This document shows, piece by piece, positions 9,001 to 12,000 of a DNA stretch of 43,461 bases. Position 1 is the first letter of the stretch; each line of letters begins with the position of its first letter. Position numbers: made by a program. The stretch covers positions 1 through 43,461 of the IMG/VR virus record IMGVR_UViG_648276647_000004; one strand, given 5' to 3'. This DNA is from a virus (Duplodnaviria > Heunggongvirae > Uroviricota > Caudoviricetes).

Positions 9001-12000
9001 GAAAATTTTGTGATTTATTAATGCTTCGAGATATGATTTTGATATATAAGGAAATTTATTTTTGTAAATGCTGCAGATTGGTCTGTAGTTGGAGGGGGGT
9101 ATTGCTGGTGAGTTGGTTCGCGGTTTACCACATTTGCGGCTATTAAATATGGGGGCGATCGTGAGGCAAAGAAAACCCGGCGCTGAGGCCGGGTTGTCTC
9201 ATTTTTTAGTTTGCTTTGGATTCGGTTTGTCTCTTCTTCCAATTATAAACACGCTAGTTAAAGCAACTAACTCAGCACCAAGAAGCCCGGTAGCCCAGCC
9301 ATAAGCCTCGTGCTGAATCATCTTGTAAGCAATTCCTGCGAAAACAAAGACAGAAGTCATCGCAAAGATCTGTCCGAGTCGATCTCGCCAAATTGCTCCC
9401 CTCTGTCCTGCTTTGTAATACTCGTGTCTGTGTTTTTGCTCAGCCTTAGCCATGTCCATTATTTCGCGAGCGAATCCTGGAGATATTCTTTCGTACTTAG
9501 CTAATTCGTCAGCGTCTGGGAGTGGCCCTGATCTAGTGTGAGTCACCTGCATCATGATGCCAGCTAGATCTGGCCTGTCCATGAGGCGCTCAAGAACTTG
9601 AGGGTTCTTTGCGACCTCATTTATAAGCAGTTCGGTTTTACCGTCTTGAACTCGCCCTAACGGAGTTGGTTGGTTAACAAGATTTCTCGGGGCGGCGGTT
9701 TGAAGCTTTCTTTGGGATTTTTTTCTGCTCATTATCAGTTACAGCGTCTCTAACGTAACTACCTACCTTAACCCAATCTGAGTTGATAAGGTCGATGTCT
9801 GTAGCATTTGAATGATACTCGCTGTAGCTACCTGCTGGGCAAAGGTCAAGGATAGAGCCCATAGCGCTGAAAAAGTGCTTTGCAGATTTTTTCATGTGGG
9901 GTGTCCTATATGTTGTTTACTCTAATTTGAGTAATTGAAGTTTACGCAAAACCTAGCTTTCAGCAAGCAATACAGCACAAAAAATCATGTAAATTTGCGT
10001 CTATTTTTATCTACCGGAAAAATGCTCAACAACTTTAGAGAAAAAATAGCAATACCAAATCAAACCAATTGCTGCTTCGCCTCTACCCAAACGTCTCTTC
10101 AGGCCACTGGCTATCAGCTATGTGACGATGAAGTCACGAACTTTTCAGCCACTCCCTTGCCTCGATGTCATCCAGATGGCGAGATTGCTTCAGAATACCA
10201 GCCACATACTCCACCTTTGCTACTTGATGATAAGGCAACGTTATTGGCCTATGGTCCTGGTTGATGCTTGTAAACTGGTATTCTCCGTCTCTGTCATAGC
10301 CAAGAACTTTGATCATGTTGTGTCCTTCAACGGTTCTGACAAACACCTCATCACCCGGGAAGACTTTGGTGTTAGGCTCAATGAGTACATATTCTCCTGA
10401 TTTTATTCTGGGCCACATGCTGTCTCCTTTCACACGAAGACCAAAGGCATCTGGATCATCGCTATAAATTTTGAGCCACCCATCGCGCTCTTCGGTCATC
10501 TCGATGGCACCATCAACACCAAGAATTGCCTCACCAACCACGCGCACTAACCCTTTTTTTAATTTGCCAACAAATGAAAGAGTATCTTCATCATTCGCTC
10601 CATTTAACGAAGTGCCGTGCTGAAGCCAAACAACATCAACGTTTAGAAATTTCGCAAGCGCATTCATTTTTTCCTGACGCGGTAAAGACTCAGCATTAAA
10701 CCATTTGCTAACGCCTTTGGACGAAAGAGAAAGGGCACGGGCTATGGCCATCCCCCTACCATGTTCATCAAGACCAGCTTCTTTACAGGCTTGCGCTAGC
10801 CGCTGGGCGAATTCTTTGCGCACTTTTTCATTCTGAACCATGAGTACGATACTAAAGCACTTGCAAAAACTTTCAGTTCAACCATAATACGTACTGAAAG
10901 TACGAAAAAGGATATTCCTATGCAAAATCTTGATGAGCCGATTAAAGGTGTCGGCATCCCTGAAGTTGCGAAGGCTTGTGGAGTTAGCGAAAGGGCTGTC
11001 TATAAGTGGCTCAAAAACGGCTTCCTCCCTAAGACTGAGTTTTTTGGGAAAACTAAATACGCATCAAAAATCGAAGAGATTTCTGGTGGCAAATATCAAG
11101 CAAGCGAAATGCTTGAAATAAGCAAAAAGAACCTTCTGGCTGCATAAGTAACACCGCTCTTTATCAATCTGCACCGCCGACAACGCGGTAACTAATTAAG
11201 CACTCATCGAAAGATGAGTATTAGTGATTATTTACCTATGGAAATAGTAAGAAATGGAACAAACAAGTTACAGCAAACTATCACAGCGCGACGTTGATCG
11301 CGCAGAAACAGATTTACTCATCAACCTGTCAACGCTTACACAGCGCGGTCTGGCAAAGATGATTGGCTGTCATGAATCGAAGATAAGCAGAACGGACTGG
11401 AGATTTATTGCTTCGGTCTTGTGTGCTTTCGGAATGGCATCAGACATCAGTCCGATTAGCAGGGCTTTTAAGTATGCGCTTGATGGACTCACCAATAAAA
11501 AACGCCCGGTGTGCAAGACCGAGCGTTCTGAACAAATACAAATGGAATTTTAACAACATCCAACGAGGTAATTATATGCGAAACAAAGGCTTTAATCCAC
11601 CTGATACACACAAAGAAGCTAAGCGTTTGCGCTTCCTTCGTTCCATTGATGAAAGAACTCAAATCTCTTTTGTGAAAGTTGCCAGAACTGAGCTTCTGAA
11701 GGCTGAAGCGAGGGCGTTGCTCCCGTCTCTACCAAAAGAGGAGGGATATACGTTCATTCCAAACGCATTTCTGGAAAAGCTGCTCAAAGAAGACATATCC
11801 GTAAGTCAGTTTAACGATGTTCTTAAGGTCTTTCGTCAAGGCAGGTAGTTATGAGCAATACAGCAAAAATCTACGATTTCAGCGCCGCACACGAGCGCAG
11901 GAGCAACAGGATGGAGAACCAGAAAACTGGTTACATTCCGTTGTACCGGAGCATTCTGAAACAGTCATGGGCGAAAGATGTTTATCTTCGCACCCTGTGG

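Follow-up and report, generated by a model that had tools for sequence, protein, structure and literature searches.

The 43,461 nucleotides (nt) of DNA analyzed here (the window; IMG/VR record IMGVR_UViG_648276647_000004, positions 1 to 43,461; Caudoviricetes) belong to a lambdoid prophage, and the element in question is a pair of overlapping open reading frames (ORFs), ORF1 and ORF2, lying between the cI-type repressor gene and the gene of the N antiterminator, that is, in the position held in phage lambda by rexA-rexB. ORF1 encodes a small soluble protein and ORF2 an inner-membrane protein with a DUF2335 domain (PF10097); cro and cII are also among the immunity-region neighbors of the pair (coordinates in Table 1). 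A preliminary description of this DNA had reported two frames of 73 and 177 amino acids (aa), offset by one and overlapping across a run of seven A (A7), and had read them as one gene split by a frameshift, either phase-variable by slippage or recently inactivated. Both frames, their offset and their overlap of 59 nt were confirmed, and the run does lie within the overlap, although at 9718-9724 and not at 9721-9727 as given there. The observation is thus real, while its interpretation as a frameshifted or phase-variable gene is, on the sequence comparisons set out below, wrong. We consider it probable, with appreciable room for doubt, that what lies here is an accessory cassette ("moron") of two intact genes, standing in place of rexA-rexB in this lambdoid prophage.

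Across the run the codons are CAG AAA AAA A in the frame of ORF1 and AGA AAA AAA in that of ORF2. Deletion of one A does fuse the two frames, as had been claimed, the product being 231 and not about 232 aa long, whereas addition of one A leads to a dead end of 79 aa; either change, A6 or A8, removes the conserved N-terminus of ORF2. With nine A7/T7 runs in the 43-kb window, such runs are common and this one is therefore not statistically remarkable. The fusion is nevertheless what speaks for a single membrane-anchored gene of about 231 aa that has suffered a +1 A slip and is now either phase-variable (A6 ON, A7 OFF) or recently inactivated, and an A6 allele encoding exactly the 231-aa protein does occur, on two contigs. 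We regard this explanation as extremely improbable, first of all on the tract lengths of close relatives. The cassette is present at more than 98% identity in 21 of 5,426 finished Escherichia coli genomes, and a 71-nt probe laid across the run matches over 71 nt in every one of them, so that all 21 carry A7. Exact-protein look-ups covering about 15 billion proteins returned the A7 forms of ORF1 and ORF2 on 815 and 905 contigs, respectively, against the two contigs with the A6 fusion and one with the A8 product, and A6 and A8 are thus equally rare, as is expected of errors or sporadic mutants rather than of phase variation. The A8 contig differs in length from the window by two indels and no others, namely one A more in this run and a change of T6 to T7 in the leader upstream of ORF1. 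A non-coding run of six A in that leader (9979-9984, plus strand) is A7 in two of the records compared (L004 and L025), and 16 other records of the same group are longer by one nucleotide, suggesting a leader A7 there too; since this non-coding run varies among the same genomes, the coding A7 tract is kept constant. The sole substitution in the overlap among close relatives (at 9691) replaces Pro by Thr in ORF1 and leaves the ORF2 protein unchanged.

More distant relatives argue against a split gene just as strongly. A search with the fused 231-aa protein as query gave 22 clusters, all of 161-188 aa and covering the ORF2 part only, down to 48% identity, and a profile search with the ORF1 family gave 83 clusters, all of 37-126 aa and none with DUF2335 or any other Pfam domain; a fused ORF1-ORF2 homologue occurs in neither set. 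The DNA was then read in eight enterobacterial lineages, the window and prophages of Enterobacter, Cronobacter, Pectobacterium, Photorhabdus, Symbiopectobacterium, Yersinia and Serratia, and a scan of genome contigs returned nine loci. In the eight lineages the distance from the ATG of ORF1 to that of ORF2 is 163 nt (seven lineages) or 166 nt (one), and ORF1 overruns the ORF2 ATG by 38-65 nt, always in the +1 phase and down to 42% ORF2 identity. A7 is found only in the three lineages closest to the window, the other five (Pectobacterium, Photorhabdus, Yersinia, Serratia and Symbiopectobacterium) having runs of 3-4 A at an otherwise identical two-frame layout. The same holds in IMG/VR, where the partner gene is present at 28 of 28 loci and in the same phase at 27, with overlaps of 32-62 nt, and where A7 is restricted to the clade whose ORF2 identity is about 70% or more (and present at all of its loci), with A3-A5 in remoter homologues. 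Comparison of homopolymer length across related prophages, which the preliminary description had proposed as a check, thus finds the tract invariant in close relatives and replaced by shorter runs in distant ones.

Still further afield, a small ORF bearing the ORF1 motif overlaps the start of the DUF2335 gene by 32 nt in Klebsiella phage RAH1, 77 nt in Klebsiella phage BUCT711, 29 nt in E. coli phage ZX5 and 11 nt each in Staphylococcus phage E72 and Arthrobacter phage Gusanita, all five overlaps being 2 mod 3. A like arrangement was seen by eye in a Methylobacterium genome and in an Actinomycetota metagenome-assembled genome, where the match to the hidden Markov model of the partner is weak (expectation value, E, 0.9 to 2.3), and no partner was seen at two Saccharibacteria loci and one Bacillota locus with DUF2335. 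On these sequence grounds the pairing of ORF1 with DUF2335 is much older than the enterobacterial clade of the window.

That ORF2 has a start of its own follows from the conservation of that start. Its ATG is found at the equivalent position in all eight enterobacterial lineages and is kept while the ORF1 residues spanning it differ (Asn-Glu, His-Glu and Asn-Ala, from AAT GAG, CAT GAA and AAT GCA); Met1 is present in 22 of 23 ORF2 homologues, and the N-terminus M-x-R-K/R-K, which both A6 and A8 would destroy, is conserved. In the data examined ORF1 and ORF2 homologues are without exception encoded by separate genes, each with a start of its own, the very outcome that the preliminary description had named as fatal to a frameshift, and that reading fails for this reason. 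Recent inactivation fares no better, given the lack of any fused homologue in the two cluster sets, the conserved ORF2 start and the selection on ORF1 described next. Taken together, the comparisons establish ORF1 and ORF2 as separate genes whose long +1 overlap is an ancestral and conserved layout.

ORF1 itself carries the marks of a real gene. Over codons 1-54 the nonsynonymous rate (pN 0.13-0.42) lies far below the synonymous one (pS 0.37-0.97), showing purifying selection, and a GAGGA or GAGG Shine-Dalgarno sequence stands at the equivalent place before ORF1 in all eight enterobacterial lineages. The protein matches phrog_26284 over its full length (E 1.5e-39, profile positions 1-65 of 65), its homologues are 63-79 aa long, and a motif G-S-x-L-D-x-x-P…Y…D-W/F-x-x-V/I-G-x-D is conserved from Enterobacterales to Staphylococcus and Arthrobacter phages. 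The AlphaFold2 model is a simple two-helix one (helices 3-18 and 31-59; predicted local distance difference test, pLDDT, 71), and no hydrophobic segment is present, the hydrophobicity maximum over 19 residues being 0.64. A reading of the N-terminus (…ILDLC) as a lipoprotein signal or signal peptide was rejected, as the Cys is unconserved and hydrophobicity is low. One may ask whether ORF1 is spurious and only the DUF2335 gene real, as RefSeq has it: ORF1 lacks a Pfam family and is left without annotation by the Prokaryotic Genome Annotation Pipeline in all four E. coli genomes inspected (L001-L004). The purifying selection, the conserved strong Shine-Dalgarno sequence and the motif that reaches to Staphylococcus and Arthrobacter phages, with 83 clusters and three PHROG families of partner genes (26284, 10654 and 27385), make this scarcely credible. 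The small DUF2335 partner is unannotated too in Klebsiella phages vB_Kpn_RAH1 (L022:3209-3481) and BUCT711 (L024:3209-3562). We ascribe this systematic annotation gap for the partner gene to the long same-strand overlap.

With two genes in place, the A7 run could still serve recoding within the sub-clade that carries it, either by slippage of a minority of ribosomes or transcripts (+1, or deletion of one A) that yields the fusion or by a -1 slip that enters the ORF1 frame and so aborts ORF2 after 19 aa. The ORF2 frame, AGA AAA AAA, does hold a perfect X_XXY_YYZ heptamer (A_AAA_AAA), and every clade member at about 70% ORF2 identity or above retains the run. Outside that clade, however, genes and overlap are preserved but the run is not (A3-A5), its retention is accounted for by Lys and Arg codons in both frames, and no stimulatory RNA structure lies downstream; moreover, efficient transcriptional slippage usually takes a run longer than A7. 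We therefore consider recoding very unlikely. The A7 run represents ordinary Lys/Arg codons common to two frames in one sub-clade, and no frameshift lesion.

ORF2 is assigned to DUF2335 with 62.6 bits (cut-off 25) over residues 72-121, and matches phrog_3996 ("membrane protein", moron category) with E 1.8e-42 over profile positions 6-147 of 152. It begins with a basic N-terminus and a helical, predicted cytoplasmic part of some 120 aa that includes the DUF2335 motif (RSGPLPDADELAKYE…PG…EQ.HR), followed by a membrane hairpin and a basic C-terminus. The two C-terminal transmembrane helices reported earlier are borne out by Kyte-Doolittle peaks at about 121-140 and 146-165, some 6 residues apart, and both are modeled by AlphaFold2 with pLDDT above 80. 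By the positive-inside rule the protein is predicted to be N-in/C-in, with nearly all of its mass cytoplasmic. The literature yielded no paper bearing on the function of DUF2335. Two papers on effectors of the type VI secretion system list "DUF2335 (phospholipase)" (10.1101/2023.07.16.549128; PMC6267618). That label is probably a slip for DUF2235, as PF10097 is a small membrane-protein domain. The family description of PF10097 does not include an obligate small upstream partner, as is found here.

Table 1. Coordinates of the cassette and its flanks in the window
Feature	Position	Strand	Description
ORF1	9674..9895	minus	73 aa, soluble, two-helix; phrog_26284, no Pfam family
ORF2	9199..9732	minus	177 aa, DUF2335 inner-membrane protein; RefSeq WP_000087627.1
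ORF1 3' end / ORF2 5' end overlap	9674..9732	minus	59 nt; ORF2 frame is ORF1 frame +1
A7 run	9718..9724	minus	Within the overlap; Lys-Lys in ORF1, Arg-Lys-Lys in ORF2
Shine-Dalgarno AGGA	9904..9907	minus	8 nt upstream of the ORF1 ATG, read from the sequence
AT-rich leader	9896..10084	minus	Cassette-specific; guanine-cytosine fraction 0.38
Left joint and terminator	9150..9195	minus	Lambda t_imm-type; hairpin 9174-9195 directly after the ORF2 stop
Right joint	10085..10113	minus	Fossil lambda-type cI 3' end (…ASQWPEETFG*), aligned to the lambda cI stop region
Resident cI-type repressor	10134..10841	minus	HTH_3 and Peptidase_S24, phrog_4; same strand as the cassette and upstream of it
N antiterminator	8418..8843	minus	Other flank of the cassette

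The claim that the cassette is self-contained and sits in the rexAB position was upheld, and both of its boundaries could be located. On the left, window positions 9150-9195 are 100% identical to the t_imm region of lambda (35781-35826), and the identity stops at the stop codon of rexB and ORF2. This is also where the strong terminator noted earlier lies; its strength was confirmed (-18.4 kcal/mol, by terminator scan and folding of the hairpin), although it is the t_imm terminator of lambda and not private to the cassette. On the right, the resident cI is followed, about 20 nt downstream of its stop codon, by the fossil 3' end of a different, lambda-type cI allele; in a Cronobacter prophage (L008) this sequence still serves as the live end of cI, and similarity to other E. 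coli prophages stops at about 10113. The fossil end marks the joint at which recombination brought in the cassette. As both joints are of lambda type, rexA-rexB was replaced exactly, through conserved flanks, and as the cassette adjoins at least three different repressor (cI) alleles among E. coli prophages, it moves as a unit of about 0.95 kb (~9160-10113). Its description as an AT-rich unit was not sustained, since the guanine-cytosine (GC) fraction of ORF1 and ORF2 is 0.455 against 0.462 for the window, the intergenic region upstream (9896-10133; 0.382) being the sole AT-rich part. The interval between cI and N is a documented hotspot, with rexAB and bstA among its occupants (PMC8585504), and the cassette belongs to this known class of immunity-region morons. 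Other E. coli prophages have the t_imm-type sequence followed by different cargo, for instance P63C-domain and DUF3037-domain proteins, and the slot thus appears, from sequence, to be a swap site for accessory genes.

Just beyond N, the pL operon holds two further accessory ORFs on the minus strand, 7457-7906 and 7966-8217, coding for a 149-aa protein with hydrophobic segments (phrog_3054), roughly at the position of lambda sieB, and for an 83-aa protein (phrog_2471), respectively; neither has a Pfam or PADLOC match. The N protein has an arginine-rich motif, GNAKTRRHERRRKLAIERD, which we take to be of P22 type (gene 24). Its nut/boxB specificity is probably P22-like despite the lambda-identical t_imm, another sign of mosaicism.

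How the cassette is expressed can be proposed from its leader and its terminators. Scanning of four lineages (the window, L005, L011 and L012) detected a terminator after ORF2 in each and none between cI and ORF1; for the remaining four, inspection by eye showed a terminator-like hairpin behind ORF2. Within the leader, a promoter search gave three weak candidates with 8 of 12 matches and none with 9, and Rfam had no match within 8800-10300; a block of about 90 nt beside ORF1, compared by eye, is also conserved in the versions of Enterobacter and Cronobacter. rexAB and bstA are expressed by read-through from cI promoters (PMC8585504). With no terminator between cI and ORF1 and only weak promoter candidates in the leader, such read-through is the simplest reading here as well, and in the lysogen both genes would then form the distal part of the cI transcript, which would end at t_imm.

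At the level of translation, the overlap is a likely site of coupling. ORF1 has a strong ribosome-binding site, whereas ORF2 has no well-placed Shine-Dalgarno sequence and its start codon lies 38-65 nt ahead of the ORF1 stop, in A-rich sequence without stable structure. The coat-lysis pairs of phages MS2 and fr have spacings of -50 and -38 nt, respectively, and their downstream start is supplied by ribosomes that terminate on the upstream gene (PMC12548453); it is the match to this geometry, together with the missing Shine-Dalgarno sequence, that makes it probable that ORF2 synthesis is tied to ORF1. In MS2 and fr, as here, the gene of a membrane protein begins in the +1 frame tens of nucleotides before the upstream stop and lacks a good Shine-Dalgarno sequence; unlike there, no inhibitory RNA hairpin covers the ORF2 start, and the genes are accessory genes of a DNA phage with no lysis gene among them. 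Synthesis of ORF2 could thus depend on translation of ORF1, or be kept low by it, and the ratio of partner to membrane protein would be set in this way.

Several observations weigh against these proposals. A weak hairpin followed by a U-run in the leader (10041-10073, minus strand; -4.1 kcal/mol), with a counterpart of -10.3 kcal/mol in Enterobacter (L005, ~3665-3695), could be a leaky terminator or attenuator of cI read-through, and, should it cut that read-through, it would imply an unrecognized promoter in the leader. No conserved RNA structure was found at the ORF2 start (minimum free energy -22.3 kcal/mol, mean of shuffled sequences -26.1 kcal/mol, z = +1.08), so that coupling of the unfolding type is unsupported and ORF2 may initiate independently. 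Finally, in a distant DUF2335 module (L056; IMG/VR UViG_3300031088_000802, ~1345) the two genes overlap by 1 nt and in the other phase, and the long overlap is therefore not obligatory.

As to function, position and architecture suggest, tentatively and at somewhat less than an even chance, that the pair is a lysogen-expressed module that protects against other phages by exclusion or abortive infection. We favor an antiphage role because the module sits in classic accessory (moron) sites of other phages: at the lysin-integrase junction, beside ant and the tail fiber or tailspike gene, before the tape-measure gene and beside immunity genes; on the P22 map, sieA stands beside ant and the tailspike gene. 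In such a scheme the pair would act at the inner membrane of the lysogen on superinfecting phages, ORF1 being the cytoplasmic partner (a sensor or an inhibitor) of the membrane effector ORF2, and would be Rex-like in function without being a Rex homologue. The comparisons with known systems weigh against this proposal. Neither protein has a match in PADLOC-DB 2.0 at E up to 1, and likeness to RexA (blastp E above 0.3; hhalign probability 0.1%; no PHROG cross-match), to RexB (hhalign probability 0.3%, hydrophobic stretch only) and to P22 SieA (hhalign probability 1.1%) is lacking. A PDB sequence search gave hydrophobic-bias matches only, leaving both proteins without solved relatives, and the AlphaFold2 models are weak (mean pLDDT 59.5 for the whole of ORF2, from a 23-sequence alignment, besides the 71 of ORF1).

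The main rival to an antiphage function is that the pair comprises a self-regulating membrane toxin (ORF2) and its small neutralizer (ORF1), for addiction or stabilization, or else a factor of lysogenic conversion or prophage physiology (membrane stress, induction or lysis timing). A small soluble protein encoded upstream of, and overlapping, a membrane protein does resemble the antitoxin-toxin order, the overlap would fix the ratio of both proteins, and the lack of matches to known defense families fits as well. We nonetheless judge this alternative the less likely, as the module is consistently found in sites of exclusion and defense, the rexAB slot and the sites in other phages listed above. 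Its great rarity on plasmids (6 of 72,556 records) is neutral in this respect.

Among characterized systems, a close analogue to the proposed antiphage pair is lambda rexA-rexB itself, an abortive-infection pair by which lysogens exclude T4 rII, among other phages, and which shares the slot between the cI 3' end and t_imm, the strand of cI and the combination of one soluble with one inner-membrane protein, presumably expressed in the lysogen. The differences are that the rex proteins are 279 and 144 aa long against 73 and 177 aa, that their genes are separate and not overlapping by 59 nt, and that sequence or profile similarity is absent. RexB is usually described with four transmembrane helices, whereas ORF2 has two predicted ones. 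HK97 gp15 is an inner-membrane exclusion protein, and so is P22 SieA. Both are expressed in the lysogen from accessory slots that are the same as that of the cassette or equivalent to it. BstA of BTP1 and other single-gene morons downstream of cI are likewise lysogen-expressed from such slots (PMC8585504); BstA is a large soluble DNA-associated protein. With homopolymer contingency loci and frameshift pseudogenes the cassette has in common a mononucleotide run at the junction of two frames; in contrast to contingency loci, its tract is invariant, no length variant restores a conserved product and the layout exists without the tract.

What follows from these results is, in the first place, the removal of a false lead: neither a phase-variable nor a decaying gene lies at this locus, and deep sequencing of the tract would be wasted. 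The cassette also offers a natural DNA-phage example for the study of translational coupling with long negative spacing. More broadly, and doubtful though we hold it to be, DUF2335 and its small overlapping partner may form a widespread, as yet unnamed two-component module of temperate phages that protects its lysogen at the inner membrane, through exclusion or abortive infection, with an MS2-like overlap setting the ratio of its components; the known range of the module takes in phages of Enterobacterales, Staphylococcus and Arthrobacter and, apparently, Methylobacterium and Actinomycetota genomes. Small (0.95 kb), placed in the best-known exclusion slot of lambdoid phages and made up of a domain of unknown function and a mostly unannotated partner, the cassette is a testable candidate, and, the pair being conserved across phyla with the same unusual overlap, a single phenotype in E. 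coli would annotate the whole family.

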